64,000 nt of DNA from the NCBI GenBank assembly GCA_036172245.1, contig JAYWIR010000001.1:6572001-6636000 (forward strand), given 5' to 3'. Positions 1,331 to 64,000 of this stretch are shown here, piece by piece. The position numbers and the translations under genes were made by a program. The notes under the pieces were generated by a model. That model made no database searches. It saw nothing but the letters and a program-made list of their open reading frames with translations, and was not told where the DNA came from. How positions within the stretch are numbered: position 1 is the stretch's first letter; every line of letters begins with the position of its first letter. The stretch comes from Raillietiella orientalis (lineage: Eukaryota).

Positions 1331-1399
1331 CCGCTCCCCGGGAATCTCGGACGGTTGCCCGTCTCGCTCTCTCCATTCAGTCAAACGTGCTTCCATCCA

Positions 1400-23760: not shown

Positions 23761-26700
23761 CAACGGTGATTCACATTAGAAATCATTCTTGGATTCACCG
23801 GGTGAAGAGGAAAGGACGAAAAAGGCTTCTCGTGTTATGAGCGGAAGTCATGTTCGCTGCTTTGCTCAGAATAGCAAACTGTTGAGCAGACTGGAAAGGA
23901 CTCCTCTCCTTGTCCCAACTTCATGACTCCGTTCTTCATGCATTGAGCCATTCAGCCCTGGAACTGTCGTTTCATGTCTAACGTTTCCATAGCCTGAGAA
24001 GAACTGCAGTATGGCCCCCTGTTTCGGATGAATGCCAGTCTGCCCGCGGCCATCACTGCGACCGGCACACGCCAAAAGACTTTCTTTGCTTTGCTTTTCC
24101 TCTGCCCTTTGCTGGAAACAGTTGACTTCCCCCTCGTACTAAAAGACCGTCATGACGTCTCCTTTCCGGTTCTGCTGGTGTTAGCGGTGCTCTTCACAAA
24201 TATCACGTTTAGACCCAATTCAGGATTGCACTGTCAAACCTCAACAGACTTTAGCTTCGAGGAGGACCTTTCTGCTGCATGCCGAGTGGTGCTGCCTAGA
24301 AGGGAAACCGGAGAATGTGAAGAAGGGTGGGGGACCTCAGATCGCATCCGCATCGGAAAGCGTGGATTGTGCAGCTTTTGTCACGGTATGATCTGAAATG
24401 GAAGAAAATAAGTTCTATTTTCCATCAAGACGTTTTCCGAGATTCCTCGTAATACAACCATCATCTCCATGCCAACGCAGCACTGTATACGTGACATCCA
24501 AGAAGGAAATACGAGGTAAGCAAAGTATTCAGCATTCCAGCATGAATTTGTCCTGCATACAAAAGACACTCCGTTGACTTATCGTCTCGGAAGGCCTCTA
24601 TGATATTGAGAACCATTGATGTCGCTTTTGCTTCTTCATCTCATCAACGAACGATTCCGTTGACTGAAGTGAAGATCGATGGAAGTCTTTTCCGCACGTT
24701 GTGGAATGGAAATGTCCCGAACATTCCCACTTTTGTTTCGTCAGCCTCAAAACCAACACATTTATAATACTCATCAATAGACGGTGAGTGTTTACGACCA
24801 CCAATTCGGTAAGAAATTTCGGCGTATCCTTCAAATGCTTTCTGATGAAATAGGAAGGCGCGAATAATCGAAAACCTTTGCCACCGTAAATTGTTGAATG
24901 AAATCAAATAACAAATCATGCCTGTCCGAGACGGTGGCTAATGTGTGTCCACATGAAGCAACATTTTGTGGAAAACTCTGCCATGTCCTAAGAGCAAGTC
25001 TTTGAGGAAGGAAAAAGCCTCTGGACAAATTCAACTATCAACTCCGTTCACTCTCATGTGTACATTCTTCCAAGATCCCTGATGTTGGATGTCACTCTTC
25101 CCAACATAGCCAACGAACCGCTGACTGCCCTACTACGAAGAGTGGATCAAATAAACTGGAATGTGGTGTGGACTTGTTTGCTTCAAAAAATTGGGTCAGC
25201 GGAAAGAACAGCACCCCAGCGCTAACTGTACGCGTGGGCGTTCCATATCGCAAAGATGTGTGATCCCCATAGAAACTGCAAGTCAACTATGCATTTTCAA
25301 AAATGATCAGCAATGTGTAAAAATAGGGAAGGCAACTTTTTGTGGCGCAAGAGTAGGCGAAAGTGCATTTTGGGGGACTTGCAAGCCACTTCAGAGGCAA
25401 TCCGGGCAATCATGAGCTGCCCGAACCGTGAGATGAGAACCTCTGGAACGGATTTCTGTTCGGAAGCATCTCAGGTGCAACAGCATTCCTCTCCCAGGGA
25501 TCCGATTTGGATTTCGGCGCACCACACTTTCTCAGTTCGTTCACCGGGTGGTCGCTTTTACCTGCTGGAAGCCTGAAGCTGATGACACAGGATTGCGAAA
25601 GATGCGTGCTTCCTTTCCATCCGACGCCGACACCTCGGAAACGCTTTTCCATTTCCAAATTCCGATTGCCTTGCGTCAAGATGACGTACGAAGGCGCTGT
25701 TCATAAAATCACCTGCTTACGGGCATCATGATCGAGTGTGTTGGGATGATGATCGAGCCATCAACAGTAACCTGAAAACAAAACAAGAGAGAATCCAATT
25801 TCTACTTGTCACATGCATCTTGGACCGGGAAGGACACTTCGTCGTTTCTGCAGCAACCAACGAACTTGGGGCGTGACGATGCGCAGCAGAGTCGTGTTGT
25901 CACTGAAAAAGACATGATGGCAGGAACAGGAACAGAAATGCACGTCTCCATGGGGAACCATCGCACGTTGCGCACGCGTGCGGTGATGTTATCCGCCAAC
26001 TGCAAACCTCTGGAACTTTCCAAACATTTCTCGTGGTTCTCCGAGTCTGATGAGGCACGCATTTCCCAATCTGGAATTGCTTGTTCGCAGTTGAGCACGC
26101 ACGGAAAGCAAGGAGGGGGACTTTTCGCAGAAATCCATCAAACGGTTCCGTGCAATTCCATATTCTTAAGAAAAGGCAAAAAGACAGTCGAGCTGGTTTA
26201 CTGCGCTGCGAAGCATTAACAACACGACAAGGGAACAGGGCGACATCTTCGTAATTTTGAATTCAATCCTGGAGGTTGTCTTGCAGAGGTACTCTTCATC
26301 ACACCGAATCGTTCTGATGGTCCGCTTTGGGCTTGCGTAGGAAACCTACTTTCCCGGGGATGGCGTACGTTGTCTCGAGTGCGTCTCTGTGGTTGACTTC
26401 ACTTGACCTGACTGCATTGCTCGCACAAGTGTAGCATCCCTCTCTTCATTTTGTGTGCAAGGAATACAAACTTTAGAAAACCCAGTCACATGGTCATCAA
26501 GAGACTTACCTTGCAAAGCTCCTGGAACTTATTAGCGCATGTAATGGATGCGTTGCCAGTTCTCGGCTGTTCCACAGGCGGCGGACCGGCTTTACTTAGC
26601 TGGCTGACCTCGGAGATGGATTCTTGGGTGCTCACCTTTTGCCAACCACTGTCGTTCCGATTTGGAGTGGCAGCATCATTAACGGTTGTGGCGTGGGCTT

Positions 26701-26789
26701 GTGGCAACTGTCTTGCGATCTCCTGGTGCAATCGCAAGTCCGTTTTATTAGGAAATGTTATCTTTCAGCAGTTCAGGAGGCAGAAAAGC

Positions 26790-27060
26790 CTCGTGGTCTT
26801 CGGCCGGGGGAATATTGAAGCTTTACGGGTACACTTGTGTAGGCAGATAGACTGCGGGATTTGCAGACCGGATGAACGGCAGATGGGGCAGTGTCTTCTT
26901 ATAGCAGCCCGGCGTGCCTGCAACAAGTGTCGCTTTAGAGAATGCAAGGATCGGCTCGAGTACGAGGAGTTGGCCTCCCTGTTGCAGTCACTAGACGTCT
27001 TTTCCGTGTGGTTGGGCATCGGGACGACGGACCGAAGCTCGCCAGCCTCCCCGTTGTACC
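26790..27060 (-). mobile_element. Possible N-terminal zinc-finger remnant of an R2/NeSL-type retrotransposon (mirror 60905-61175)
   Basis: VVPMP..DC..SYSSRSLHSLKRHLLQA(R)..HCPICR..ICLHKC resembles the C2H2/CCHC tandem pattern of such elements. No linked RT recognised. Confidence 0.3.
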
Positions 27061-27565
27061 TGACATCGGGAAAGACCGGGTTTCGTCCAGGGTGGGAGTG
27101 GAGATGAACAGTTGCTCGTTATCTACTTCCGAAGTGGACTTGGGACAAGCAGGAGGGAACTAGACTACCTCATAAGCCTTACCACAAGCCACACTCTCTC
27201 TACAGTGTTGACCGTCAAAGAGGCCGTGCCAACGCCTGACCTTCCTTATGTGCGTCGCGAAGATGATCGTTGTGTCTGTGTGTGGTTGATGGATGATTTC
27301 CTCGAGGAACTTCAGAAAGAGAATCCTGTTTGCAGGGAGCTCGCAACTCTGCACTGAGTGAGCATCCATCGAATAAAGGAGAAAGTGAATTTGTTGGGGA
27401 TGGGTTCTGCAAAGGAGGAAGGAAATTTCCATGTATGATGTACCAAGTCATCAGGGAATGGCTGAAGGGTATTCCCATGGGTGGATGCTCCTTGGCTGCT
27501 CAAGCCAGTTCCACCATGTCTGTATGGGATGGGGATGCGAGTGTCAAGACAGGTGTTCCCGAGGA

Positions 27566-27766
27566 GAGCATGAGGGAGCAATCGAATTATCAAAAGACTT
27601 TGATGAAGATGTGGACGCCGTTGCGGTGTGATGGGGAGAGAATGACGCCGCAGCAAAATCTGCAACGGCGACTCCTTGCTAGGAGAGTATTTTCTCCGCA
27701 TCACACCGCAACGGCGTCGACATCTTCATCGAAGTCTTTTGATAATTCGATTGCTCCCTCATGCTC
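27566..27766. repeat. Local inverted repeat: 78-bp arms, 4 mismatches, 45-nt loop (mirror 60199-60399)
   Basis: 27566-27643 (gagcatgagggagcaatcgaattatcaaaagac...) pairs with 27689-27766. Confidence 0.93.
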
Positions 27767-29199
27767 CCTCATGTCATCGTCGGTGTAGTCCAGGCATCGT
27801 ACTTCTTGTGCTCGTGAACGACTCCAGCATGCCGTTGCGGAAGCGCCTTCCTAAGGGAAGAGTTTGAGCACAGGGAGCCATCAAGTGGGAGGCGGTTGAT
27901 AAGCGGTGGCATCGCACTAGGGACAGCGCAGGAGTGTTTTTCCTCAGGACGAGACATGATAGAAGACAGACATTCTTTGCAGCAGATCTGCATATTCGAC
28001 ACCATTACTCAGTGTGTGGTCTCCATGTGCCTCCCGATACGTCTGATTCTGTGGCTATCCCGGACGGCAAGAGATTGGACGAGGGAGTGGATTCGGAGCC
28101 TCTGGAACGCGCAATAACTGTAGGTGGCCATCGAGGATACACGGCAAGAGAGAGTGGGACAATGCTTGTCAATGAGCCACCTCTAGTAAGCAATATATGT
28201 AGCTGTTCACGTTAGTGACAGATATAGTGGGAAGAGCGCGTCAAGTAAGCGAAGGAGAGGAGAGATGGACTTAGCCACACACATAGTTTCGGCCATGAGC
28301 GGCGATAGGGACACATGCTTAACTACGAGTCAGTACACGGCGCCAAGGAGGATAGCCGCGCAAGCAAGTACAAGTCGACAGGCAAAAATACTGAGCACCA
28401 CAACCGGGCGTCTGCTGCGCACGCGTCTTGGATCGCCCAACCCATGAGCGTCACCAGTAACAGCGCCAAGTCACCGGCTCCCGTCTTGCCGATCAAACAC
28501 GCCCTTGGGGAGCCCAGTGCTGCCGACCACAATTTGTGTGTCAGATGGCGTGGCTCCTGCTGGAGTTCCAGAAAGAGCCGTGTCCAGCTCGTATGCGCAG
28601 TAACCATAGCTTCTCTTTTCGACAGACACGCACATTTGAGCTGGGACTGGGCGGGGTGACACGAGAGGGTACTTTTGCAACGGAATCTCAGGAACCCTTG
28701 GGAGTTTTGCCATGAGATCGACATCCCCGAAAAGTACTCAAGCGCAGTTTATCGTCAGCCTGGAATTTTGAAATGTCTCCTATAGGGAATGCCGCAGCGA
28801 GAAGTTCCGAAATAAACATTTCGACCTACGAGCTATCGCCAGCGTGGCAAGTGGAATTGCCTTTCCACAAGGATCTTAGCCAATTCTCTGGAAGGAGATG
28901 TCCATGTGATAGTAATAAATGGGTCGTATGAAATATTACGGGATACACTTCTGTTGGAGTCAAGTGACCATGTTAAGAAAAATTAAACAAAATTACACCA
29001 AATCGTTCGAGAAACGTTTGACAGACGAACCCAAACGTGGGCAACACACTGATAGAATGAAAGAGGAACAGAACCTTGACCTGAACAAGGTCAGAGACCA
29101 TACATGAGATCGACAGCTCGAACTGTCAGTCGAGGGGTCAAAAACAGAAGGAGACCAGAAAGTCCAGCAACGCACCCAGTCCCACGCTTTTCCAGGCGC

Positions 29200-31300
29200 A
29201 AGCCTTCCAGAGGCATCACGTGGACAACTTCTGACGAAGACATCTGCGCCCGACTGATCCAGGAATTTTCATGCGACACCTGGAAAGACGAACGAGTGAA
29301 AACCATCGGAAGATGCTTGAAGAGGAAACCTCCGAAGAAGAATTGAAAGCTGCATTTGTGGAACTTTGCAAGGATGTGGCGGCGGGCCCTGAAAGTGTCC
29401 CCAGCTCTCGCTATCACCAGTACCTGCATGCTTACCGCCGTTTGTTCCAGCAGCTCACGCTCTGCATCCGGCAAGGAGGACGACTCCCTGCATCCCTTCA
29501 CGAGAGCAGGATGAGATTGTTGCCGAAACAAGCTGAACTGACTAAGGTTTCTCAATGGAGGCCAATCCCAATCCTGAAAAGCGATGCCAAGTGGTTAGCA
29601 ATGATCTGGGCTTACCGTTAGGCAATGTCGTGCCGAAGCTCATCTCTCCCGTCCAAACATGCGCGGTGCCCGGACGCCACATGTCGGATAATGTCAAGTG
29701 TGTTCAGGCTAGCACTGGTCTCAGCCGATATGTAGTCGAAAACTTGGTACTGGGTTTCACTGACATGGAGAAAGCTTTCGATACGGTGCAACGTAGGATG
29801 CTGCTGGAGATTCTAGGAACACTGGGCCTCCCGGTACGATTCAGCAGCTACGTGAAGATGAAACTTCAAGAGCAACGCCTTCGGATAAAGATAAACGGAG
29901 AAGAAGAGACAGCAGCCATCCGGATGGAACGAGGATTCAAGGCTCTCATTCGAATGCTGTATGTCATATACATGAAGGCCTTCTCATGATTCATGGAGAG
30001 AAGCGGGCGACTCCGCCGAATCACTGTCGACAATTAGAGGCTTACCCATCTGGCTTACGCGGATGATCTTCTCTTCTTCCTCACAGGGGAGAGAATGGAG
30101 CGTACGATTCTGGATGTGCTGGAGCTTATGGAAGAAGGATAGGGCTTAGAAATCAATGCCCAGAAGAGCCAACTTTTGCCCGTCGGGATCTCTCCATACT
30201 CATGGAGAAATGATTCCGAACGGTGGACAATGCCAAGCACCTGGGTGTCCACATTGCGACAGTTCATCGTCTCAACCATTGTGGAAGGAAATCTCAGGGA
30301 AAACAGTGCAAGAAGGAACGAATTTTCCCCCTTTGGACTTTGGCATGAAGCGGAGGACCAACCTTTGCAACGGAGTACTCCTTCCAAAGATACCCTTCGT
30401 CGCGGCCTTCTGCAGAATGCATAAAAACACCAAAGGAGAGGTAGGAAAGCTACAAAGGAGAACCCTCTGAGGAGGTTATCGACCGAGAGTCCGCCTCAAA
30501 CCACTGTGCCGTCCTAAAGAGGAAGGCGGAACCGGTATGAACTCGCATGCACGCGATGTGGACACCATGGACGTGCGACAACTGCTGGACATGCCGGAGA
30601 ACTGGGAAGACTGGCCGCATACAGCGCACTCCTTGTTGATAAATAACACAAGAGGACTTATGATTGCGCAGCTCAGCCGAGTGGGTGAACGGGGGACCAT
30701 CGACCGAACCTGGAGACGGAAGCAACAGTTGCTAAACAGGCAGCTGAAGATCATACCAAGGAACCAGGAACCCTGGCAGCAGGCATCCATCCTGCTAATT
30801 CCGTGGATGCTCCCGAAATCTCCGGATACGAGGACATGGATCTACCAGCGGTAAAGGGTTACCTTGCAAGCAGCTGAAGCATGAAAACGAGTAGAGTACC
30901 TTCACCATCCCCGAGTACTCCCATACATTCGCAGGATAGCTGCAAGATTCACCCACAGGACCCGCAAAGTGCGGAAAAAACCACAACAACTTCTTGTGGT
31001 CGAGGGTAAAAAAGAGAAACCTATGCCGACTAATAGTCGAAGAGGAAAAAGACACCAGTGCCCTCCGAGAAGCCACGGATCGCCACGGTAGTGCTGGGAT
31101 AAACCTGTTGACGATGGGAACGACGCTCTGGAAGAGAGACTTGTCACCGGATACACAGGATAACCTCCCGATTTTTTATCATGGTGGAATCCTGTGCGGG
31201 ACAGCCATGAAGCCTTTCGCGGGAAGAAGAGTAGATGAGGACAGCAAAGCATGTGCAGACAAGGATACAAGACTTCACGACGTCACCTGTCCCTTTAAGA
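29200..31300 (+). mobile_element. Degenerate L1/Tx1-clade non-LTR retrotransposon ORF2 (RT, thumb, C-terminal Zn-finger remnant), family A
   Basis: Colinear motifs across frameshifts and stops: EEELKAAF..AAGPE, LLPKQ..WRPIPILKSDAKWLA, ISPVQTCAVPGR, DMEKAFDTV, HLAYADDLL (~30050), GLEINAQKS, LCRPKEEGGTG (~30505), HGGILCG..ACADKDTRLHDVTC (~31180-31290). Confidence 0.92.
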
Positions 31301-31747
31301 GAGGCACACCCTCAAAAGGGCAAACGGGATGCCCACCACATCGAAAATGAGAATTTTAGCAGGCATCTTCCGAGGAAATGGGAACGTTCCCTGCTACAAT
31401 CCCGTGGTAAGGATGACCATCGCCCTCTTCATCACCGCCATCCATGTACGGAGGTGAAAGATGAAGACCACCGACACCGCAGTATCTCCAATGGAAATCC
31501 TAAAAGGGATCATCCAGAAGCACATCGGAATAAGAAACTGTGGAAGAGTACAGGGCTGGAACGACCGGCACATCCTGAGAAGGATTAAGTCCAATGTCTA
31601 AGCAGAAACGACGCCCAGTTCCCCAAGTGTAGTGAATGATCCCAGGACACATAAGTGAAATAATTGAGCAAACGAATGCACGAATACCTAGAGTGAATAT
31701 CAAATAAGATAAATTCACCTACTTCTTGTGGGACTTGGGAAAACACG

Positions 31748-31903
31748 TAATATGATTATTGCCATAGTATTGGATATGATAGAGGGGAAGGAGTTGAAAA
31801 TAATGGAAATTATTAGGAATATTGAGGATGAAACTGCTTGGATTAGGAAGTATTTTATTGTGGAATGTGTTGATGAGGCAGTGGTGGGGGTTGCGATAAT
31901 GGG
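31748..31903 (-). pseudogene. nad2: NUMT: N-terminal part of mitochondrial nad2
   Basis: PIIATPTTASSTHST(I/M)KYFLIQAVSSS(I/M)FL matches the ND2 KYFLxQAxxS motif. Same G-poor strand skew. Confidence 0.75.
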
Positions 31904-32169
31904 ACATATGAACGAATCCAGTAAACACACCAAAGATGATGACCTGGATAGCAGAAACGATGGAATTAAACCCAAAAAACTAACACAAATGGAAACTCTC
32001 GATATACATGAGACTGGAATGCACAGGAAGTGGATCAAAGCCAGCTGGAGTCGTCCTCAACATCATTTGGAGGATTACAACGATTTCTGAGAGAAATACT
32101 TTTTGAAGCTACATTAGATGGGGCGATTTCGATCACCTTGGCAAGAAATATGGGGCAACGTGGGTGAGT

Positions 32170-32650
32170 CACCAGGGAGCCGTTCTCCTCTGGCGTTGCC
32201 TGTGGCTGCCGTATTCTCTCGTGGACGCCGAGGAGACGCACAAGATGCGCTGGTGGGGATGCGTGTCATTGAATTGGGCTTTGATTGTGACCGTGAGGTT
32301 GACCCATGCGATCGTGGGTGCATAACGTTCCCACAGTTGTTGCAGGGAAGCACAGTCCACAAGCGGTTGCAGGAAGGGTTCACGTTCCCCGCATACGACT
32401 CAGTTTAGATCCACACATTCCCAGATCCAGTGTTGTCCTCAGGCGATGCATGAAAGTCCCCACATGACATCAAAAACTCCTATTCCCACCACACGTAAGA
32501 AAGCGTGCAGTTGCCCAGGAACAACGAATAGTATTCGATATCTTGACGGGAAATTCAGATGAGTGCACCCCAACCAAGAATGCTTCTTGATGGGGGATTG
32601 GGGGATTCGGCGCCAGAGCTGCTCTGTGGTCTGTTGTCCTATACCTGGAG
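32170..32650 (-). mobile_element. Family B-like LINE C-terminal fragment (mirror at 55315-55795, +)
   Basis: QHWIWECVDLN*VVCGEREPFLQPLVDCASLQQLW aligns with FHWTSGSVDADCTECEERKTFLHLLIECVALR. Confidence 0.6.
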
Positions 32651-35600
32651 GTGATTTCGCCGATTACTTACTATTTTTCTGAAAAGCTCCCACCAATAAC
32701 CTCCTTCAGGTTTGCTCGCGGTGACGCCCATTCCTCATTAAGGTGTCTAAAGGAAGTACACAACAAGGGTTCACGGACACGTCCGACGTCACGGACACGA
32801 TTTCCTGAACGTCCAGAGCGGAACGAGAAGCATAGAAAACAAACAAATCAATAAGAGGCAGAGTAAGGATGTCTGACTTTAGCCATTTGTTTACGTAACA
32901 CCGATAAAAGTCTAGAACGGTTCAGAGATTGAGGTGAACGATTGTATGAAAAGGAAGGAGGACCAAGGGTCACCGGCAACGTTCTTTTCTTTCCTTCCAA
33001 AGCGGTGCAATATATCGACAATCTTCTCCTGAACTTTCACGTCCACGTGAGGCGATCTGGCATCCGCTTTCACGTGGACAACTGCGGTGCTGCTTGGGGC
33101 CTCCGTTCTCTTCGCCCGAGACTCCAGCAAAAAGGAAACAAAGCCGAAACGAAGGCACGGATGCGAAAGGTCGTCGCCTTCACGGAGTTTGTCGTCGCTG
33201 CATTTCTCGCAAAGAATCGCCGCAGCATGTTGGGCGCAGTGTATCTGATATACGGTCGGACAGAGTTAAGACAACGCCAAAGTTAGTGGAAGGCACTGCA
33301 GTACAACAAGAGCTGCAAAAACGTCTGAATCGCCGCGCACTCCAAAAAGTTGGAGGACACGACGCCCTTGGAAATCCGATTCCCACGCTGGTTGCAACGG
33401 AAAACTTCATGCAGGAGGACTTGCTTCTACTTCAGCGGGAACACGGAAGTGTCCATACACAGAGCAGGGAGAACAACTTCGTCGTCGGCCACCCTGAGCA
33501 ATTCGCTGCATGATGCTGCTGTTTGGAAGCTCCCTGTGAGGTGCAGTGGCAGAGTCTGCCAGTTCACTGTCTGTCTATCAGGCCGCCCAGGAGTTTTCTT
33601 TTTTTCTGCAATGATGCGGGACAACAACCTGGTTCCTGAGGATGCGCAAGGGGGAACGCGTTCTATAGTCCAGGAAGGCGTGAAACGCGTACCATTCAAC
33701 AAAAACCTCCGTAGGCAACACGCGCTGCACGTGCTTTGCACTTGTGAAAGCTGGCATGGAAAAAATCGACCTGGCTGTCCTGAAATGAATATGCGCGTAT
33801 TCGTGCCTGCACGAATGTGTGGACTTTGGAGACCAGCGGACCCCTCTGTAAAATGCACATGCATCTCAGATTCCTTCTAACCGGGCTGCAGCGTGTTGTT
33901 TACTGCAAACAAATAAGGTACGAAGGCTGTGGTAGGACTGTCGCTCTACCACTTCCACTGGTTGTGGATAAGGAACTCAAAGGAAACCGGTGCGCTGGCT
34001 GGCTGTCGAGGCAGCAGTAGGCAGGTAGCAAACAAAACGAAAAATAGAATATGGAAAATGAGATAACAAGAAATAGAAAGACATTCTAGGCCGCCTAGGA
34101 ATGGGGCACTCCATGCATAGGGACGTCCTTTACGTGCTTCTAAAGATGCCTGCCAGCTCAAGCAGCATAATTTCCAGGTGCGTCCATCTCCATGCTATCC
34201 TGAACAAAGTGACTGCAAAAGGGATCGCATAATTGTCGTTGTCTCGTCTCACGTCTGTGCTCAGGAAAGCCACAGTCTCTCGTAGGCAAGAGAGGGCTGC
34301 TAGGAACTGGGCTGGAAATAGGGAATCTCGTAAGAACAGGGCTTTCGTGACGAAACGATTCCGGCATAAACGTGAAGACTCCAAAGTGTCCTAGCAAAAC
34401 TCCCCCAGAGGAGCCGGACGGCACGAATTCACAAGTACTTGCGGAAAAGATTTCCATCGTCGACCCATGCCACACTTTGAGCTCACAAAACTATTCGGGA
34501 TCAGTGATGTTTGCGATCGTTGCTTGGAATGCTCCAGCGCAGCCGCAGAAGCGTCGGTTCCTGCCAATTGCAATTTACCTACCGAGGGTGTGAGTGTTCG
34601 AGCAGATCATCCGAGCTCATAATTTTTGTAGTTGGAGCACTTGAGGTGACAGCATCAGTCAGTCAGCTTACCCGTGGTGCAGCCACCTAACGCTTTCCTT
34701 GTGGATTAGTCCGCAAGCGACCTCGCATATCGTTTGAAAGCTGCTGCCATTCTTATGCATCAGAAAGGCAGCGCAGCTGCAACGGAGATTTACTCTGCCT
34801 ACGCTCTCCTGCTGTGTCGGTTCACGATTTCTTCGAGAAAGCAGCCGCTGTGGGATGAGCAGTGCAAGCGCTACGATCCCATTGAAATGGGTTTTGAAAT
34901 CCCCGCGCACGTGAGAACGGTTTCCTGCAACCAGGCACCGCCTGCAGCGTCGATGCGGCAGCAGAGAATGGAACTGTAGTTTTTAGTCAGTGCAGGAAGT
35001 TGGCGTAAGATCAGCGCAAAGTTCCTGACAAGTCGTCGGCGTCTTCCAACGTTGCAGGAGAGTCCCTCACGGAAGGCCGCTCTTTTGAGGAGGATGCGTG
35101 AGGTGCACGCCAACGGGTGATGCAGTTTTTCGCCAATGGGGACAATGTTCCTCACTCGAGCGGTGGCTCCAACTTCGGACTACGAGCACTCATATTGCGG
35201 TACGTGCGAATGCTGCTCTCCATTCGTAGCGCCAGGGAACAAGCCCATGACCTGAAGACGGGAAGCAGCAAAGGAAGTGGAGCAGCAACCGAGCACGTAT
35301 ACGGAATGCCGCGACTCACCCGAGGAAGAAGGCTGCTGGGAGTACCATTTCCTAATGAAAAGGCGTAACAAAAGGACTTCGATGGACGATCTGTGGACAC
35401 TCTCCGTGATGATGTACCATGCGACTGAGACTCTCAATCGCGGTTTCTTCCGGAAAATTCATTTGTATAAAAACCGCAGTACTTTAAACGAGGAACGAAC
35501 CGAAACTTGCTGAGAGGTCTGCTGTGTTTCGAGGGCCCCGAAAATACAAAAGTCCAGAAGAGCAATGGGTAAGCGCACGGAGACTCCAGCATCTTTTGTG

Positions 35601-38725: not shown

Positions 38726-38759
38726 AGCAATCGCTGCTTGATGAAAGAGAGCAATCAAC

Positions 38760-47200: not shown

Positions 47201-47464
47201 ATACGCTGAAAAAAAGTTGACCTTGTTTACTACTCCCTAGAAACAACCGGCCTCAAGAGTTTTCCAGATCCATCAGGAAAAATCTCTGTGACTCCAGACG
47301 ACAAAGAACATTCGAATATTGAAGACGACGGCTCTGTGAGCAGCGATAAGTAACACGAAACACCAAATCGTCCATCGATGTTTTCGAGCTAGGGGGAGAC
47401 CTGGGATTCTAGGCTGTTACTTTATTCCACCCAGAGTCTGGGCCTCCAGACTGGGCCTCCAGAC
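40501..47464. other. Unique spacer (6964 bp) of the giant palindrome
   Basis: ORFs here have no mirrored partners. The paired ORFs 40293..40556 and 47409..47672 diverge exactly at the boundary (RSAE-FSGR vs RSAE-CLEA). Confidence 0.95.
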
Positions 47465-53600: not shown

Positions 53601-56061
53601 CCGGAATCGTTTCGTCACGAAAGCCCTGTTCTTACGAGATTCCCTATTTCCAGCCCAGTTCCTAGCAGCCCTCTCTTGCCTACGAGAGACTGTGGCTTTC
53701 CTGAGCACAGACGTGAGACGAGACAACGACAATTATGCGATCCCTTTTGCAGTCACTTTGTTCAGGATAGCATGGAGATGGACGCACCTGGAAATTATGC
53801 TGCTTGAGCTGGCAGGCATCTTTAGAAGCACGTAAAGGACGTCCCTATGCATGGAGTGCCCCATTCCTAGGCGGCCTAGAATGTCTTTCTATTTCTTGTT
53901 ATCTCATTTTCCATATTCTATTTTTCGTTTTGTTTGCTACCTGCCTACTGCTGCCTCGACAGCCAGCCAGCGCACCGGTTTCCTTTGAGTTCCTTATCCA
54001 CAACCAGTGGAAGTGGTAGAGCGACAGTCCTACCACAGCCTTCGTACCTTATTTGTTTGCAGTAAACAACACGCTGCAGCCCGGTTAGAAGGAATCTGAG
54101 ATGCATGTGCATTTTACAGAGGGGTCCGCTGGTCTCCAAAGTCCACACATTCGTGCAGGCACGAATACGCGCATATTCATTTCAGGACAGCCAGGTCGAT
54201 TTTTTCCATGCCAGCTTTCACAAGTGCAAAGCACGTGCAGCGCGTGTTGCCTACGGAGGTTTTTGTTGAATGGTACGCGTTTCACGCCTTCCTGGACTAT
54301 AGAACGCGTTCCCCCTTGCGCATCCTCAGGAACCAGGTTGTTGTCCCGCATCATTGCAGAAAAAAAGAAAACTCCTGGGCGGCCTGATAGACAGACAGTG
54401 AACTGGCAGACTCTGCCACTGCACCTCACAGGGAGCTTCCAAACAGCAGCATCATGCAGCGAATTGCTCAGGGTGGCCGACGACGAAGTTGTTCTCCCTG
54501 CTCTGTGTATGGACACTTCCGTGTTCCCGCTGAAGTAGAAGCAAGTCCTCCTGCATGAAGTTTTCCGTTGCAACCAGCGTGGGAATCGGATTTCCAAGGG
54601 CGTCGTGTCCTCCAACTTTTTGGAGTGCGCGGCGATTCAGACGTTTTTGCAGCTCTTGTTGTACTGCAGTGCCTTCCACTAACTTTGGCGTTGTCTTAAC
54701 TCTGTCCGACCGTATATCAGATACACTGCGCCCAACATGCTGCGGCGATTCTTTGCGAGAAATGCAGCGACGACAAACTCCGTGAAGGCGACGACCTTTC
54801 GCATCCGTGCCTTCGTTTCGGCTTTGTTTCCTTTTTGCTGGAGTCTCGGGCGAAGAGAACGGAGGCCCCAAGCAGCACCGCAGTTGTCCACGTGAAAGCG
54901 GATGCCAGATCGCCTCACGTGGACGTGAAAGTTCAGGAGAAGATTGTCGATATATTGCACCGCTTTGGAAGGAAAGAAAAGAACGTTGCCGGTGACCCTT
55001 GGTCCTCCTTCCTTTTCATACAATCGTTCACCTCAATCTCTGAACCGTTCTAGACTTTTATCGGTGTTACGTAAACAAATGGCTAAAGTCAGACATCCTT
55101 ACTCTGCCTCTTATTGATTTGTTTGTTTTCTATGCTTCTCGTTCCGCTCTGGACGTTCAGGAAATCGTGTCCGTGACGTCGGACGTGTCCGTGAACCCTT
55201 GTTGTGTACTTCCTTTAGACACCTTAATGAGGAATGGGCGTCACCGCGAGCAAACCTGAAGGAGGTTATTGGTGGGAGCTTTTCAGAAAAATAGTAAGTA
55301 ATCGGCGAAATCACCTCCAGGTATAGGACAACAGACCACAGAGCAGCTCTGGCGCCGAATCCCCCAATCCCCCATCAAGAAGCATTCTTGGTTGGGGTGC
55401 ACTCATCTGAATTTCCCGTCAAGATATCGAATACTATTCGTTGTTCCTGGGCAACTGCACGCTTTCTTACGTGTGGTGGGAATAGGAGTTTTTGATGTCA
55501 TGTGGGGACTTTCATGCATCGCCTGAGGACAACACTGGATCTGGGAATGTGTGGATCTAAACTGAGTCGTATGCGGGGAACGTGAACCCTTCCTGCAACC
55601 GCTTGTGGACTGTGCTTCCCTGCAACAACTGTGGGAACGTTATGCACCCACGATCGCATGGGTCAACCTCACGGTCACAATCAAAGCCCAATTCAATGAC
55701 ACGCATCCCCACCAGCGCATCTTGTGCGTCTCCTCGGCGTCCACGAGAGAATACGGCAGCCACAGGCAACGCCAGAGGAGAACGGCTCCCTGGTGACTCA
55801 CCCACGTTGCCCCATATTTCTTGCCAAGGTGATCGAAATCGCCCCATCTAATGTAGCTTCAAAAAGTATTTCTCTCAGAAATCGTTGTAATCCTCCAAAT
55901 GATGTTGAGGACGACTCCAGCTGGCTTTGATCCACTTCCTGTGCATTCCAGTCTCATGTATATCGAGAGTTTCCATTTGTGTTAGTTTTTTGGGTTTAAT
56001 TCCATCGTTTCTGCTATCCAGGTCATCATCTTTGGTGTGTTTACTGGATTCGTTCATATGT

Positions 56062-56217
56062 CCCATTATCGCAACCCCCACCACTGCCTCATCAACACAT
56101 TCCACAATAAAATACTTCCTAATCCAAGCAGTTTCATCCTCAATATTCCTAATAATTTCCATTATTTTCAACTCCTTCCCCTCTATCATATCCAATACTA
56201 TGGCAATAATCATATTA
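56062..56217 (+). pseudogene. nad2: Mirror copy of the nad2 N-terminal NUMT
   Basis: Reverse complement of 31748-31903 (ORF 55927..56250+ contains KYFLIQAVSSS). Confidence 0.75.
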
Positions 56218-56664
56218 CGTGTTTTCCCAAGTCCCACAAGAAGTAGGTGAATTTATCTTATTTGATATTCACTCTAGGTATTCGTGCATTCGTTTGCTCA
56301 ATTATTTCACTTATGTGTCCTGGGATCATTCACTACACTTGGGGAACTGGGCGTCGTTTCTGCTTAGACATTGGACTTAATCCTTCTCAGGATGTGCCGG
56401 TCGTTCCAGCCCTGTACTCTTCCACAGTTTCTTATTCCGATGTGCTTCTGGATGATCCCTTTTAGGATTTCCATTGGAGATACTGCGGTGTCGGTGGTCT
56501 TCATCTTTCACCTCCGTACATGGATGGCGGTGATGAAGAGGGCGATGGTCATCCTTACCACGGGATTGTAGCAGGGAACGTTCCCATTTCCTCGGAAGAT
56601 GCCTGCTAAAATTCTCATTTTCGATGTGGTGGGCATCCCGTTTGCCCTTTTGAGGGTGTGCCTC

Positions 56665-58765
56665 TCTTAAAGGGACAGGTGACGTCGTGAAGTCTTGTAT
56701 CCTTGTCTGCACATGCTTTGCTGTCCTCATCTACTCTTCTTCCCGCGAAAGGCTTCATGGCTGTCCCGCACAGGATTCCACCATGATAAAAAATCGGGAG
56801 GTTATCCTGTGTATCCGGTGACAAGTCTCTCTTCCAGAGCGTCGTTCCCATCGTCAACAGGTTTATCCCAGCACTACCGTGGCGATCCGTGGCTTCTCGG
56901 AGGGCACTGGTGTCTTTTTCCTCTTCGACTATTAGTCGGCATAGGTTTCTCTTTTTTACCCTCGACCACAAGAAGTTGTTGTGGTTTTTTCCGCACTTTG
57001 CGGGTCCTGTGGGTGAATCTTGCAGCTATCCTGCGAATGTATGGGAGTACTCGGGGATGGTGAAGGTACTCTACTCGTTTTCATGCTTCAGCTGCTTGCA
57101 AGGTAACCCTTTACCGCTGGTAGATCCATGTCCTCGTATCCGGAGATTTCGGGAGCATCCACGGAATTAGCAGGATGGATGCCTGCTGCCAGGGTTCCTG
57201 GTTCCTTGGTATGATCTTCAGCTGCCTGTTTAGCAACTGTTGCTTCCGTCTCCAGGTTCGGTCGATGGTCCCCCGTTCACCCACTCGGCTGAGCTGCGCA
57301 ATCATAAGTCCTCTTGTGTTATTTATCAACAAGGAGTGCGCTGTATGCGGCCAGTCTTCCCAGTTCTCCGGCATGTCCAGCAGTTGTCGCACGTCCATGG
57401 TGTCCACATCGCGTGCATGCGAGTTCATACCGGTTCCGCCTTCCTCTTTAGGACGGCACAGTGGTTTGAGGCGGACTCTCGGTCGATAACCTCCTCAGAG
57501 GGTTCTCCTTTGTAGCTTTCCTACCTCTCCTTTGGTGTTTTTATGCATTCTGCAGAAGGCCGCGACGAAGGGTATCTTTGGAAGGAGTACTCCGTTGCAA
57601 AGGTTGGTCCTCCGCTTCATGCCAAAGTCCAAAGGGGGAAAATTCGTTCCTTCTTGCACTGTTTTCCCTGAGATTTCCTTCCACAATGGTTGAGACGATG
57701 AACTGTCGCAATGTGGACACCCAGGTGCTTGGCATTGTCCACCGTTCGGAATCATTTCTCCATGAGTATGGAGAGATCCCGACGGGCAAAAGTTGGCTCT
57801 TCTGGGCATTGATTTCTAAGCCCTATCCTTCTTCCATAAGCTCCAGCACATCCAGAATCGTACGCTCCATTCTCTCCCCTGTGAGGAAGAAGAGAAGATC
57901 ATCCGCGTAAGCCAGATGGGTAAGCCTCTAATTGTCGACAGTGATTCGGCGGAGTCGCCCGCTTCTCTCCATGAATCATGAGAAGGCCTTCATGTATATG
58001 ACATACAGCATTCGAATGAGAGCCTTGAATCCTCGTTCCATCCGGATGGCTGCTGTCTCTTCTTCTCCGTTTATCTTTATCCGAAGGCGTTGCTCTTGAA
58101 GTTTCATCTTCACGTAGCTGCTGAATCGTACCGGGAGGCCCAGTGTTCCTAGAATCTCCAGCAGCATCCTACGTTGCACCGTATCGAAAGCTTTCTCCAT
58201 GTCAGTGAAACCCAGTACCAAGTTTTCGACTACATATCGGCTGAGACCAGTGCTAGCCTGAACACACTTGACATTATCCGACATGTGGCGTCCGGGCACC
58301 GCGCATGTTTGGACGGGAGAGATGAGCTTCGGCACGACATTGCCTAACGGTAAGCCCAGATCATTGCTAACCACTTGGCATCGCTTTTCAGGATTGGGAT
58401 TGGCCTCCATTGAGAAACCTTAGTCAGTTCAGCTTGTTTCGGCAACAATCTCATCCTGCTCTCGTGAAGGGATGCAGGGAGTCGTCCTCCTTGCCGGATG
58501 CAGAGCGTGAGCTGCTGGAACAAACGGCGGTAAGCATGCAGGTACTGGTGATAGCGAGAGCTGGGGACACTTTCAGGGCCCGCCGCCACATCCTTGCAAA
58601 GTTCCACAAATGCAGCTTTCAATTCTTCTTCGGAGGTTTCCTCTTCAAGCATCTTCCGATGGTTTTCACTCGTTCGTCTTTCCAGGTGTCGCATGAAAAT
58701 TCCTGGATCAGTCGGGCGCAGATGTCTTCGTCAGAAGTTGTCCACGTGATGCCTCTGGAAGGCTT
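56665..58765 (-). mobile_element. Mirror copy of the family A LINE pseudogene in the right arm
   Basis: ORFs 57976..58410- and 58344..58694- are identical to 29555..29989+ and 29271..29621+. Confidence 0.92.
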
Positions 58766-61700
58766 GCGCCTGGAAAAGCGTGGGACTGGGTGCGTTGCTG
58801 GACTTTCTGGTCTCCTTCTGTTTTTGACCCCTCGACTGACAGTTCGAGCTGTCGATCTCATGTATGGTCTCTGACCTTGTTCAGGTCAAGGTTCTGTTCC
58901 TCTTTCATTCTATCAGTGTGTTGCCCACGTTTGGGTTCGTCTGTCAAACGTTTCTCGAACGATTTGGTGTAATTTTGTTTAATTTTTCTTAACATGGTCA
59001 CTTGACTCCAACAGAAGTGTATCCCGTAATATTTCATACGACCCATTTATTACTATCACATGGACATCTCCTTCCAGAGAATTGGCTAAGATCCTTGTGG
59101 AAAGGCAATTCCACTTGCCACGCTGGCGATAGCTCGTAGGTCGAAATGTTTATTTCGGAACTTCTCGCTGCGGCATTCCCTATAGGAGACATTTCAAAAT
59201 TCCAGGCTGACGATAAACTGCGCTTGAGTACTTTTCGGGGATGTCGATCTCATGGCAAAACTCCCAAGGGTTCCTGAGATTCCGTTGCAAAAGTACCCTC
59301 TCGTGTCACCCCGCCCAGTCCCAGCTCAAATGTGCGTGTCTGTCGAAAAGAGAAGCTATGGTTACTGCGCATACGAGCTGGACACGGCTCTTTCTGGAAC
59401 TCCAGCAGGAGCCACGCCATCTGACACACAAATTGTGGTCGGCAGCACTGGGCTCCCCAAGGGCGTGTTTGATCGGCAAGACGGGAGCCGGTGACTTGGC
59501 GCTGTTACTGGTGACGCTCATGGGTTGGGCGATCCAAGACGCGTGCGCAGCAGACGCCCGGTTGTGGTGCTCAGTATTTTTGCCTGTCGACTTGTACTTG
59601 CTTGCGCGGCTATCCTCCTTGGCGCCGTGTACTGACTCGTAGTTAAGCATGTGTCCCTATCGCCGCTCATGGCCGAAACTATGTGTGTGGCTAAGTCCAT
59701 CTCTCCTCTCCTTCGCTTACTTGACGCGCTCTTCCCACTATATCTGTCACTAACGTGAACAGCTACATATATTGCTTACTAGAGGTGGCTCATTGACAAG
59801 CATTGTCCCACTCTCTCTTGCCGTGTATCCTCGATGGCCACCTACAGTTATTGCGCGTTCCAGAGGCTCCGAATCCACTCCCTCGTCCAATCTCTTGCCG
59901 TCCGGGATAGCCACAGAATCAGACGTATCGGGAGGCACATGGAGACCACACACTGAGTAATGGTGTCGAATATGCAGATCTGCTGCAAAGAATGTCTGTC
60001 TTCTATCATGTCTCGTCCTGAGGAAAAACACTCCTGCGCTGTCCCTAGTGCGATGCCACCGCTTATCAACCGCCTCCCACTTGATGGCTCCCTGTGCTCA
60101 AACTCTTCCCTTAGGAAGGCGCTTCCGCAACGGCATGCTGGAGTCGTTCACGAGCACAAGAAGTACGATGCCTGGACTACACCGACGATGACATGAGGGA
60201 GCATGAGGGAGCAATCGAATTATCAAAAGACTTCGATGAAGATGTCGACGCCGTTGCGGTGTGATGCGGAGAAAATACTCTCCTAGCAAGGAGTCGCCGT
60301 TGCAGATTTTGCTGCGGCGTCATTCTCTCCCCATCACACCGCAACGGCGTCCACATCTTCATCAAAGTCTTTTGATAATTCGATTGCTCCCTCATGCTCT
60401 CCTCGGGAACACCTGTCTTGACACTCGCATCCCCATCCCATACAGACATGGTGGAACTGGCTTGAGCAGCCAAGGAGCATCCACCCATGGGAATACCCTT
60501 CAGCCATTCCCTGATGACTTGGTACATCATACATGGAAATTTCCTTCCTCCTTTGCAGAACCCATCCCCAACAAATTCACTTTCTCCTTTATTCGATGGA
60601 TGCTCACTCAGTGCAGAGTTGCGAGCTCCCTGCAAACAGGATTCTCTTTCTGAAGTTCCTCGAGGAAATCATCCATCAACCACACACAGACACAACGATC
60701 ATCTTCGCGACGCACATAAGGAAGGTCAGGCGTTGGCACGGCCTCTTTGACGGTCAACACTGTAGAGAGAGTGTGGCTTGTGGTAAGGCTTATGAGGTAG
60801 TCTAGTTCCCTCCTGCTTGTCCCAAGTCCACTTCGGAAGTAGATAACGAGCAACTGTTCATCTCCACTCCCACCCTGGACGAAACCCGGTCTTTCCCGAT
60901 GTCAGGTACAACGGGGAGGCTGGCGAGCTTCGGTCCGTCGTCCCGATGCCCAACCACACGGAAAAGACGTCTAGTGACTGCAACAGGGAGGCCAACTCCT
61001 CGTACTCGAGCCGATCCTTGCATTCTCTAAAGCGACACTTGTTGCAGGCACGCCGGGCTGCTATAAGAAGACACTGCCCCATCTGCCGTTCATCCGGTCT
61101 GCAAATCCCGCAGTCTATCTGCCTACACAAGTGTACCCGTAAAGCTTCAATATTCCCCCGGCCGAAGACCACGAGGCTTTTCTGCCTCCTGAACTGCTGA
61201 AAGATAACATTTCCTAATAAAACGGACTTGCGATTGCACCAGGAGATCGCAAGACAGTTGCCACAAGCCCACGCCACAACCGTTAATGATGCTGCCACTC
61301 CAAATCGGAACGACAGTGGTTGGCAAAAGGTGAGCACCCAAGAATCCATCTCCGAGGTCAGCCAGCTAAGTAAAGCCGGTCCGCCGCCTGTGGAACAGCC
61401 GAGAACTGGCAACGCATCCATTACATGCGCTAATAAGTTCCAGGAGCTTTGCAAGGTAAGTCTCTTGATGACCATGTGACTGGGTTTTCTAAAGTTTGTA
61501 TTCCTTGCACACAAAATGAAGAGAGGGATGCTACACTTGTGCGAGCAATGCAGTCAGGTCAAGTGAAGTCAACCACAGAGACGCACTCGAGACAACGTAC
61601 GCCATCCCCGGGAAAGTAGGTTTCCTACGCAAGCCCAAAGCGGACCATCAGAACGATTCGGTGTGATGAAGAGTACCTCTGCAAGACAACCTCCAGGATT

Positions 61701-64000
61701 GAATTCAAAATTACGAAGATGTCGCCCTGTTCCCTTGTCGTGTTGTTAATGCTTCGCAGCGCAGTAAACCAGCTCGACTGTCTTTTTGCCTTTTCTTAAG
61801 AATATGGAATTGCACGGAACCGTTTGATGGATTTCTGCGAAAAGTCCCCCTCCTTGCTTTCCGTGCGTGCTCAACTGCGAACAAGCAATTCCAGATTGGG
61901 AAATGCGTGCCTCATCAGACTCGGAGAACCACGAGAAATGTTTGGAAAGTTCCAGAGGTTTGCAGTTGGCGGATAACATCACCGCACGCGTGCGCAACGT
62001 GCGATGGTTCCCCATGGAGACGTGCATTTCTGTTCCTGTTCCTGCCATCATGTCTTTTTCAGTGACAACACGACTCTGCTGCGCATCGTCACGCCCCAAG
62101 TTCGTTGGTTGCTGCAGAAACGACGAAGTGTCCTTCCCGGTCCAAGATGCATGTGACAAGTAGAAATTGGATTCTCTCTTGTTTTGTTTTCAGGTTACTG
62201 TTGATGGCTCGATCATCATCCCAACACACTCGATCATGATGCCCGTAAGCAGGTGATTTTATGAACAGCGCCTTCGTACGTCATCTTGACGCAAGGCAAT
62301 CGGAATTTGGAAATGGAAAAGCGTTTCCGAGGTGTCGGCGTCGGATGGAAAGGAAGCACGCATCTTTCGCAATCCTGTGTCATCAGCTTCAGGCTTCCAG
62401 CAGGTAAAAGCGACCACCCGGTGAACGAACTGAGAAAGTGTGGTGCGCCGAAATCCAAATCGGATCCCTGGGAGAGGAATGCTGTTGCACCTGAGATGCT
62501 TCCGAACAGAAATCCGTTCCAGAGGTTCTCATCTCACGGTTCGGGCAGCTCATGATTGCCCGGATTGCCTCTGAAGTGGCTTGCAAGTCCCCCAAAATGC
62601 ACTTTCGCCTACTCTTGCGCCACAAAAAGTTGCCTTCCCTATTTTTACACATTGCTGATCATTTTTGAAAATGCATAGTTGACTTGCAGTTTCTATGGGG
62701 ATCACACATCTTTGCGATATGGAACGCCCACGCGTACAGTTAGCGCTGGGGTGCTGTTCTTTCCGCTGACCCAATTTTTTGAAGCAAACAAGTCCACACC
62801 ACATTCCAGTTTATTTGATCCACTCTTCGTAGTAGGGCAGTCAGCGGTTCGTTGGCTATGTTGGGAAGAGTGACATCCAACATCAGGGATCTTGGAAGAA
62901 TGTACACATGAGAGTGAACGGAGTTGATAGTTGAATTTGTCCAGAGGCTTTTTCCTTCCTCAAAGACTTGCTCTTAGGACATGGCAGAGTTTTCCACAAA
63001 ATGTTGCTTCATGTGGACACACATTAGCCACCGTCTCGGACAGGCATGATTTGTTATTTGATTTCATTCAACAATTTACGGTGGCAAAGGTTTTCGATTA
63101 TTCGCGCCTTCCTATTTCATCAGAAAGCATTTGAAGGATACGCCGAAATTTCTTACCGAATTGGTGGTCGTAAACACTCACCGTCTATTGATGAGTATTA
63201 TAAATGTGTTGGTTTTGAGGCTGACGAAACAAAAGTGGGAATGTTCGGGACATTTCCATTCCACAACGTGCGGAAAAGACTTCCATCGATCTTCACTTCA
63301 GTCAACGGAATCGTTCGTTGATGAGATGAAGAAGCAAAAGCGACATCAATGGTTCTCAATATCATAGAGGCCTTCCGAGACGATAAGTCAACGGAGTGTC
63401 TTTTGTATGCAGGACAAATTCATGCTGGAATGCTGAATACTTTGCTTACCTCGTATTTCCTTCTTGGATGTCACGTATACAGTGCTGCGTTGGCATGGAG
63501 ATGATGGTTGTATTACGAGGAATCTCGGAAAACGTCTTGATGGAAAATAGAACTTATTTTCTTCCATTTCAGATCATACCGTGACAAAAGCTGCACAATC
63601 CACGCTTTCCGATGCGGATGCGATCTGAGGTCCCCCACCCTTCTTCACATTCTCCGGTTTCCCTTCTAGGCAGCACCACTCGGCATGCAGCAGAAAGGTC
63701 CTCCTCGAAGCTAAAGTCTGTTGAGGTTTGACAGTGCAATCCTGAATTGGGTCTAAACGTGATATTTGTGAAGAGCACCGCTAACACCAGCAGAACCGGA
63801 AAGGAGACGTCATGACGGTCTTTTAGTACGAGGGGGAAGTCAACTGTTTCCAGCAAAGGGCAGAGGAAAAGCAAAGCAAAGAAAGTCTTTTGGCGTGTGC
63901 CGGTCGCAGTGATGGCCGCGGGCAGACTGGCATTCATCCGAAACAGGGGGCCATACTGCAGTTCTTCTCAGGCTATGGAAACGTTAGACATGAAACGACA

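Follow-up and report, generated by a model that had tools for sequence, protein, structure and literature searches.

Large palindromes of X and Y chromosomes have arms of more than 8-10 kb that are more than 99% identical and flank a short spacer. Those of the Y chromosome are maintained by gene conversion (Rozen et al. 2003, as cited in PMC7953838 and PMC5490193). Palindromes are also described in parthenogenetic animals, with 11-16 in Folsomia candida and 17-19 in Adineta vaga (PMC5490193, PMC7953838). In DUP-TRP/INV-DUP rearrangements, as presented in PMC11293582, homology at an inverted repeat is used first and NHEJ or MMBIR follows, a logic of two junctions. Staggered-break inversions of Drosophila (Ranz et al. 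2007, PMC1885836) and fold-back inverted duplications (Hermetz et al. 2014, PMC3907307) are further described structures with inverted copies.

The palindrome described here is found in Raillietiella orientalis, and most of it lies within the window, the whole stretch of 64,000 nucleotides that was analysed. The animal is an arthropod-like invertebrate, placed only loosely by a TTC27 search in which insects matched best, at 46-49%. The arm ends were mapped with the help of flanking sequence free of N, 50 kb on the left side and 70 kb on the right.

22318..40500, plus strand: left arm A, 18,183 bp, the reverse complement of the right arm
40501..47464, no strand: spacer, 6,964 bp, single-copy
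47465..64000 in the window and on to 65647 (contig position 6637647), minus strand: right arm A'

The original prediction, a palindrome with arms of at least 16.5 kb around a spacer of about 7 kb, is borne out. Its constant mirror offset of 87965 holds at 16,536 of 16,536 mirrored positions within the window (only about 25-27% are equal at 20 neighbouring offsets), and its inner ends, 40500 and 47465, are exact. Extension past 64000 locates the outer ends at 22318 and 65647, the latter 1.6 kb beyond the window. The arms had been called near-perfect; the palindromy stands, but the alignment of 22318-40500 with 47465-65647 contains no mismatch and no gap, and the arms are thus perfect. With 0 of 18,183 sites different, the 95% upper bound is 1.6e-4 per site, and the copying is very recent, as predicted. 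Probing the genome with arm sequence gives just these two near-identical copies, and with spacer sequence one. No near-identical copy of the flanks, of the spacer or of an unrearranged version was found on any other contig, and the contig itself runs more than 5 Mb further on either side of the structure.

Copies of U, an old local repeat that is non-coding, lie around the arms, and parts of it lie in the arms. Codon periodicity is absent from U in 17 of 17 pairs, whereas a LINE control was positive, which speaks against a pseudogene family.

599..1343, minus strand: U copy a', an older copy
1344..6751, plus strand: U copy a, an older copy that forms an ancient inverted pair with a'
19266..22317, minus strand: outer part of U copy b, with diverged mirror homology to 65648-68681; junction J3, the outer boundary
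38782..40500, plus strand: first part of U copy c, the inner end of the arm

Copy b matches 65648-68681 with 61-69% identity in three blocks that reach 3 kb outward (13-725/12-724, 1315-1956/1277-1883 and 2964-3052/2946-3034 bp from the arm ends). The alignment is unbroken through the outer boundary, with a 1-bp gap, and the diverged flank is in register with the perfect arm. The boundary therefore sits inside two inverted U copies that are about 65% identical, and identity falls from 100% to about 65% at a single base. The start of copy c likewise matches the outer end of the arm (22318-24965) in inverted orientation, with about 65% identity. The inverted U pairs, which are 30-40% diverged, show that this locus had undergone real inverted duplication earlier. 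Among old local repeats (below 80% identity and less than 30 kb apart), 12 inverted and 15 direct HSPs were counted, which speaks against a long-standing inverted bias, although the pairs are mostly transposons.

The spacer is composed of two parts, the second of which is inverted.

40501..42324, plus strand: spacer part S1, an uninterrupted run of U copy c from the left arm, stopping at U position d67340
42324..42331, no strand: junction J1, where cut U copy c is joined to a cut copy of the low-copy repeat X
42325..47464, minus strand: inverted segment T, 5.14 kb
45414..47464, at the right end of T: U copy c2, the rest of U, resuming at d67355
47438..47464, plus strand: a 13-bp unit perfectly duplicated in tandem (27 bp), with its last base exactly at junction J2 (47464/47465)

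Copy c runs straight across the junction between arm and spacer at 40500/40501, which is ancestral. U was broken at one point, p: copy c stops at d67340, c2 begins at d67355 exactly at window position 47464, the two sides now lie at 42324 (J1) and 47464 (J2), and about 14 bp are lost. One break of the T inversion is thus the inner junction of an arm. The X copy occupies 42324-43148 and is cut at 42324-42331 relative to all four outside copies fetched; those on contigs C8 and C13 extend about 1.1 kb beyond the J1 cut, and no continuation of X occurs within the surrounding 514 kb. J1 is not a natural transposon end, because outside X copies run past it. Perfect tandem duplications of period at least 13 occur twice in the 514 kb, once at J2. 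No homology was detected on the visible side of J2, and the mirror pairing ends with the arms, not including a single base of the spacer. The two identical arms of 18,183 bp, the diverged boundary in register and the inverted T are all present in the assembly.

The structure is probably real, whatever its route of origin. Our leading, still tentative, explanation is a single repair event of recent date. Two breaks would have inverted 5.1 kb, and one junction would have been healed by 18 kb of copying that was primed at the diverged inverted repeat and closed by end joining. Breaks at p and at a point q inside X would have freed T, which would have rejoined in reverse, its q end being end-joined to the S1 side of p to give J1. 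The other free chromosome end may have been resected back to a U copy and have invaded an inverted U copy about 65% alike, and 18.2 kb would then have been copied by aborted SDSA or BIR ("one-sided invasion"). Release of the copying 1.8 kb short of p, followed by joining of the copied end to the p end of T with a templated 13-bp duplication, would give J2, and the DNA from U to q would have been lost. The resulting structure would be neutral, with no function beyond that of a repair scar, and could be inverted between its arms.

Copy d is the probable donor, because the outer end of the arm resembles it. A likelihood comparison favours descent of the arm from d by 5.4 lnL units (RELL 93%) over about 920 hand-delimited columns of 60-68% identity. 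In simulations under an arm derived from b, 1 of 60 reached 5.4, and under an arm derived from d, the mean was 5.4. The identity of arm and c is 0.62-0.68 by segment, and one of three quartets that include b supports d+b over d+c. With d as donor, an extra step is needed: the spacer would have been flipped afterward, by exchange between the arms or as an arbitrary choice of the assembly. Strand invasion at about 65% identity is also demanding, and the sequence that was overwritten, now beyond inspection, may have held a local patch of high identity. That J1 and J2 formed simultaneously is an argument from parsimony only. None of five other pairs examined has a diverged outer flank in register, so this priming route is not the rule in the genome.

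Of the three options originally offered, the best fit is a recent inverted duplication, though a complex one: it involves three junctions, is coupled to an inversion of 5.1 kb and has its outer end determined by old inverted homology. The proposed event belongs to a known kind of rearrangement. As in the DUP-TRP/INV-DUP cases of PMC11293582, one junction appears to use homology at inverted repeats with copying in the reverse direction, and the second is non-homologous, with microhomology or a templated insertion. Here, the first lies in register within inverted repeats only about 61-69% alike, and the second, J2, has its 13-bp duplication and no homology on the visible side. The differences are that no triplication is seen, the copy number being 2-1-2 alongside a local inversion and a deletion (two copies of arm probes, one of the spacer), that there are three junctions, and that the priming repeats are about 65% alike, as opposed to more than 99% for the junction 1 pairs described in that source. 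The locus works like the inverted-repeat-primed class and is no member of DUP-TRP/INV-DUP.

Inversion and inverted duplication arise together in the Drosophila staggered-break inversions as well, although the duplications reported in PMC1885836 are at most about 1.9 kb and unlinked to repeats. Here, by contrast, 18.2 kb were copied and only 5.1 kb inverted; the copy does not reach the break, from which 1.8 kb separate it, and its outer end lies in register within an old repeat. Only one arm copy adjoins T, at 47464/5, whereas the 1.82 kb of single-copy S1 lie between T and the other copy. The fold-back type of Hermetz et al. (PMC3907307) shares inverted copies that flank a spacer of normal copy number, but the short inverted repeat at the spacer boundary that characterises the cases described there was not detected here. 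Among exact words of at least 13 bp, the spacer holds no internal inverted repeat, and, with more than 5 Mb of contig on both sides, a terminal deletion or translocation is not in view.

Primate X/Y palindromes as described in PMC8327919 resemble the locus in having arms of more than 10 kb and more than 99% identity, a kilobase-scale spacer and an unstable centre. The locus lies within the size and identity range of such palindromes, with 18,183 bp, 100% and a 6,964-bp spacer. Unlike those described in PMC8327919, it has no protein-coding gene family that could be found in arms or spacer. Age, conservation and sex linkage are without support here, and the locus is not a gene-preserving palindrome of the Y type. 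Three features of the arms are recognisable.

29235..30180, plus strand: broken LINE reverse transcriptase (RVT_1, E 7.9e-10 in one of nine read-through frames), with a mirror copy in the right arm
31748..31910, minus strand: nad2 NUMT, 163 bp, with a mirror copy at 56055-56217
38029..38757, plus strand: young repeat of 730 bp, in both arms; another copy, 13 kb beyond the left end of the window, is 98.6% identical

The LINE agrees with what had been predicted for the arms. The NUMT does too, but it had been called decayed and is instead small and fresh. Pfam missed it (0 of 3 frames), and in a PDB sequence search all three matches were ND2, at a weak E of 0.028; its identity is settled by an intact nad2 frame on contig C320, with which it shares 162 of 163 bases, with one mismatch. 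The "pseudogenes" also predicted do not hold up: besides RVT_1, no Pfam family reached the cut-off among 149 + 148 ORFs of at least 55 aa from 21000-47240 (one set being 148 of 153 ORFs, with the 142 ORFs of 1-21000 left out), and RVT_1 itself was below threshold in this ORF scan. Subthreshold matches to zf-LSD1 and TauE were dismissed as chance. Rfam gave no matches in 1-48000, and a C-rich stretch at 36000-37300 matched neither Pfam (three plus-strand frames) nor 5 kb of C320. No gene is detectable in arms or spacer, and short-exon orphan genes could escape these tests.

An artefact of assembly or amplification is unlikely, although several observations suit it. In that case the chromosome would really carry a single arm, and the contig would include fold-back chimeras, such as phi29 amplification might produce when the animal is small. 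A copy made from one molecule would show zero differences, MDA chimeras are described as mostly inverted, with join points usually less than 10 kb apart (PMC9984789; the spacer is 7 kb), MDA reads with standard assemblers are reported to produce many misassemblies and false duplications (bioRxiv 10.64898/2026.06.11.730069), and all six long near-identical duplications in 1.03 Mb are inverted, the same bias as that of MDA chimeras. However, at least two chimeric junctions on one path would be needed. One would have to coincide, to within about 14 bp, with a break that U already had, and the other would have to jump at least 25 kb and arrive in register inside a diverged repeat. No overlap is present at J2 on its visible side, whereas most MDA chimeras in PMC9984789 show 5-8 nt (what lay on the other side is gone), and no other contig carries the sequence that such junctions ought to have displaced. 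The diverged inverted U pairs also point to real inverted duplication here before. Other pairs in the assembly keep mutation-like differences, such as the 26 transitions, 8 transversions and 2.6-kb insert in one arm of pair P3, so the pipeline does not flatten all arms.

Two steps would yield the same three junctions: an inverted-repeat-primed duplication with 20.0-kb arms (A plus S1) around T, and later loss of the innermost 1.82 kb of one arm at the base of the stem. We regard this as improbable. It accommodates a d-like outer end without a spacer flip, and spacer and inner-arm deletions are described as common in primate X palindromes (PMC8327919). Against it, the deletion would have had to spare all of T and yet begin no more than about 14 bp from the arm-spacer boundary, a cut specific to the stem base would be needed, and the second copy of S1 has left no remnant of at least 13 bp.

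An old palindrome with outer ends b and d, about 35% diverged, might instead have been kept or re-homogenised by arm-to-arm gene conversion in the style of mammalian Y/X palindromes. The diverged mirror homology that reaches 3 kb past the perfect tract would be expected, and the neighbouring pairs P3b, P4b and P5 have edge-weighted divergence that suggests conversion. However, intermediate strata are absent at the one-base drop in identity, the outer flanks are not mutual closest relatives among U copies (d is somewhat nearer to c than to b, with 749 of 1104 for d and c against 669 of 1104 for b and c, and the tree joins c with d on a short branch), and there is no gene found to preserve. The two halves of U in the spacer would have to be independent truncations meeting within 14 bp by chance, and the young insertions (the NUMT and the 730-bp repeat) must have crossed whole. 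Conversion of the Y type, another of the options offered, thus fits less well and is quite improbable.

Local transposition of a giant mobile element bounded by terminal inverted repeats, suggested by an arm that begins and ends in inverted U copies (22269-22764 versus 40328-39859, 65%), is largely refuted and very improbable, because U homology passes the arm ends into the flanks and so marks no termini, neither copy has a visible target-site duplication, no transposase or integrase was matched and the genome holds only two copies.

The locus by itself, read as the scar of a single repair event, would be neutral and is unusually legible, because the old local repeat U acts as a ruler for the ancestral order. 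It would document the copying of 18 kb after apparent priming at about 65% identity. The density of palindromes across the genome is the interesting lead. In 1.03 Mb, six duplications of at least 1.5 kb and at least 95% identity were found, with spacers of 1-25.5 kb; three of the six had been pre-selected, and when these are excluded, 3 in 0.88 Mb correspond to about 700 per genome (Poisson 95% range about 150-2,100). A blind sample of 450 kb from three other contigs contains one pair only (range about 12-2,600), and no pair of at least 1.5 kb is found in 160 kb of contig C2 and 140 kb of contig C10. The invertebrate palindromes of Folsomia and Adineta are likewise intrachromosomal inverted duplications that raise the worry of misassembly, but the counts given in PMC5490193 and PMC7953838 are of multi-gene collinear blocks with a wide range of Ks and are not comparable with the Raillietiella pairs, which have short spacers and identities of 99-100% and which, if a rough extrapolation holds, greatly outnumber them. 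A partial literature search turned up no report of near-identical palindromes by the hundreds in an invertebrate.

It is possible, though rather doubtful, that short-spaced inverted duplication, primable at inverted repeats about 65% alike, is the main local duplication mode of this animal, with several hundred palindromes of 99-100% identity on many contigs. If so, a few percent of the DNA would lie in palindromes, a Y-like architecture would extend genome-wide, and this locus would be a just-formed example. If the pairs are false, the assembly has a systematic false-duplication problem that distorts gene counts throughout. If they are real, an invertebrate with hundreds of young palindromes would allow their birth, homogenisation and loss to be tested off the sex chromosomes.

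The palindrome lies on a 12.2-Mb contig (C1) of a 210-Mb, 491-contig assembly (G000), in which the window is C1:6572001-6636000. A palindrome with mirror offset 87965 had been predicted, and all 16,536 of the 16,536 in-window positions are complementary at this offset, as against ~25-27% at 20 neighbouring offsets. Complementarity stops at 40500/47465. Extending the alignment into the flanks and counting mismatches, as had been proposed, gives a perfect tract at 22318-40500 / 47465-65647. The arms are 18,183 bp each, with 0 mismatches and 0 gaps, and the spacer between them is single-copy and 6,964 bp long. The "very recent" origin in the original prediction is upheld by this lack of differences, which bounds arm divergence at 1.6e-4 per site (95%) and age at ~27,000 generations, if the rate is 3e-9, a typical mutation rate assumed here. 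The palindrome is probably very young, and no gene was detected in it: Pfam at cut-off yields RVT_1 alone, and Rfam gives 0 matches. By whichever route it arose, it is probably real.

Both ends of each arm fall within copies of U, an old repeat of ~8 kb whose copies are 60-68% alike. The main body of U is detected at the palindrome locus only (contig searches of the assembly, in which counts are lower bounds). U has no codon periodicity, whereas a LINE control was positive. An ancient inverted duplication of U without spacer occupies 599-2009, is centred near 1344 and is 63-68% alike.

Copies of repeat U, in window coordinates
-6261..-3037, plus strand, copy z
599-1343, minus strand, copy a'
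1344-6751, plus strand, copy a
19266-24965, minus strand, copy b
38782-42324, plus strand, copy c
45414-47464, minus strand, copy c2
63000-71700, plus strand, copy d

The left arm passes into the spacer with U uninterrupted across 40500/40501, so this boundary is ancestral. Copy c ends at U position d67340 (window 42324), and the remainder of U lies on the opposite strand: it begins at d67355, corresponding to window 47464, which is the exact inner end of the right arm. At 42324-42331 (junction J1), copy c abuts a cut copy of the low-copy repeat X, which is uncut in four outside copies that run past the J1 point; the continuation of X is missing from 514 kb around the palindrome. The split of U and the cut X at J1 indicate that segment T (42325-47464) is inverted, with ~14 bp lost at the break. 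One side of the U break is the palindrome's inner junction (J2, 47464/47465). A perfect 13-bp tandem duplication terminates at J2, and only two of period at least 13 occur in 514 kb. Contig C8 (L053-L055) carries three copies of X (91-97%), two of which are separated by 25 kb and show internal inversions.

Past the outer boundary (J3, 22318/65647), the mirror alignment goes on at ~65% identity with a 1-bp gap, and more mirror blocks lie close to the diagonal up to 3 kb outside, so the copy terminated in register within two diverged inverted U repeats. Termination would then be homology-directed. No gradient from 100% to 65% identity occurs at J3, and a diverged outer flank of this sort was found in 0 of 5 other pairs examined. 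With U segments delimited by hand, lineage d is preferred over b for the arm's outer U segment (delta lnL 5.4, RELL 93%), a value reached in 1/60 simulations under b; this sequence comparison gives moderate support to membership in d. Under such an assignment the left side would carry the new outer junction, but the new inner junction is the right one. The two would agree if the spacer had flipped between the identical arms, either biologically or by choice of the assembler.

The young insertions below are common to both arms, and the last copying was therefore later than these.

Features in both arms
broken LINE reverse transcriptase, RVT_1 above the Pfam cut-off
repeat of 730 bp that shares 98.6% identity with a nearby copy
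163-bp nad2 fragment, 1 mismatch versus the intact nad2 frame of a small AT-rich contig, C320

The mitochondrial piece translates in the invertebrate code. Also in the arms are a C-rich stretch without Pfam match (36000-37300, GC skew -0.22) and an imperfect self-complementary hairpin of 210 bp (27561-27770, mirror 60195-60404; 85%); 37358-38000 is a high-copy repeat. A second, older mitochondrial insertion (12128-12352) is 74% identical to C320. Because C320 (L102, 5.9 kb) is AT-rich and has frames open in the invertebrate code, one nad2-like (335 aa) and one of 328 aa that we take to be nad1-like, it is either a mitochondrial piece or a fresh NUMT. A copy of it, 94% identical and no shorter than 2.3 kb, lies at C50:53901-56400 (L103). 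The TTC27 gene, with long exons, lies 36-37 kb left of the window (L011:2470-3738, minus strand); the best matches of one exon are insect proteins (46-49% identical, 18 hits). Together with the invertebrate code of the mitochondrial piece, this makes the host an invertebrate, loosely resembling arthropods. A 663-codon frame at window-relative 109777-111765 (minus strand, L005-L006), presumably LINE reverse-transcriptase-like, is far less decayed than the arm LINE.

A single repair episode after two breaks is the most economical account. In it, T would have been cut out and rejoined reversed, one end being closed by end joining to give J1. The other chromosome end would have invaded an inverted U copy, copied 18.2 kb and let go; end joining of this released end to T, with templated duplication, would give J2, and the DNA in between would be lost. 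Polymerase-theta end joining leaves short templated duplications as its mark. The junctions lie at the positions described; a single repair event, like its timing and enzymes, is a tentative reading of them. The palindrome looks like the product of inverted-repeat-primed copying that was closed by end joining and accompanied by a small inversion. A published model for inverted triplications has homology at junction 1, then NHEJ or MMBIR at junction 2 (PMC11293582), and long-tract conversion and FoSTeS/MMBIR have been reviewed (PMC4888836). The palindrome differs from gene-preserving Y/X palindromes in gene content, as no gene was detected here, and from DUP-TRP/INV-DUP in copy number. Its junction anatomy departs from the Hermetz fold-back type as outlined in PMC3907307 and the Drosophila staggered-break type as outlined in PMC1885836.

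It is rather unlikely that the palindrome is an artefact. Perfect identity, a spacer <10 kb and inverted bias are traits of MDA chimeras (PMC9984789), and chimeras do get built into assemblies (bioRxiv 10.64898/2026.06.11.730069). However, chimeric junctions would have to strike a pre-existing break within ~14 bp and land in register at least 25 kb away, the displaced sequence is not found on any other contig, and the arms of neighbouring pairs are distinguished by transitions and a 2.6-kb insertion. Part of the differences in two other inverted pairs (P1 and P4), namely clustered 1-3-bp indels, could be consensus errors. Duplication in a first step and deletion of the inner arm in a later one is unlikely; PMC8327919 provides a comparison case for such a deletion. 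An old palindrome subject to conversion is improbable, and that the arm is a giant transposon is scarcely credible.

Other inverted pairs occur in the assembly. One further palindrome has arms of 10,659 bp with 2 substitutions, and another has arms made up of two parts, 6.5 + 0.5 kb, at 99.7% and 97.4%. The pair at C1:6459089-6477320 (L046-L048; arms 5.4 kb, 99.6%, spacer 7.4 kb) has its differences in three clustered patches. In that at C1:6684257-6720980 (L005-L014; arms 4.3 kb, 99.0-99.5%, spacer 25.5 kb), one arm carries a 2.6-kb insert, transitions outnumber transversions by 26 to 8, and the edges are the most diverged. From a blind sample, C3:2087237-2103702 (L081-L083; arms 7.7 kb, 99.9%, spacer 1.0 kb) has inverted copies of a 97-98% repeat at the start and end of each arm, and 7/8 arm differences lie within the outer 170 bp.

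Duplications of at least 1.5 kb and at least 95% identity are inverted in 6/6 cases (spacers 1.0-25.5 kb; 1,034 kb, five regions), three of which were pre-selected as palindromes. Of the remaining three, two lie on C1 within the 514-kb stretch around the palindrome, and 450 kb sampled blind from C2, C3 and C10 yielded one, with no case from C2 or C10. Three blind cases are too few to establish an orientation bias, and tandem copies are more prone to collapse in assemblies. Old local repeats have no bias (12 inverted versus 15 direct). For parthenogenetic animals, published counts obtained with another method put gene-block palindromes at 0-19 per genome (PMC7953838, PMC5490193). Extrapolation gives ~700 such duplications per genome, with a wide range, and the palindrome load across the whole genome is the lead worth pursuing.
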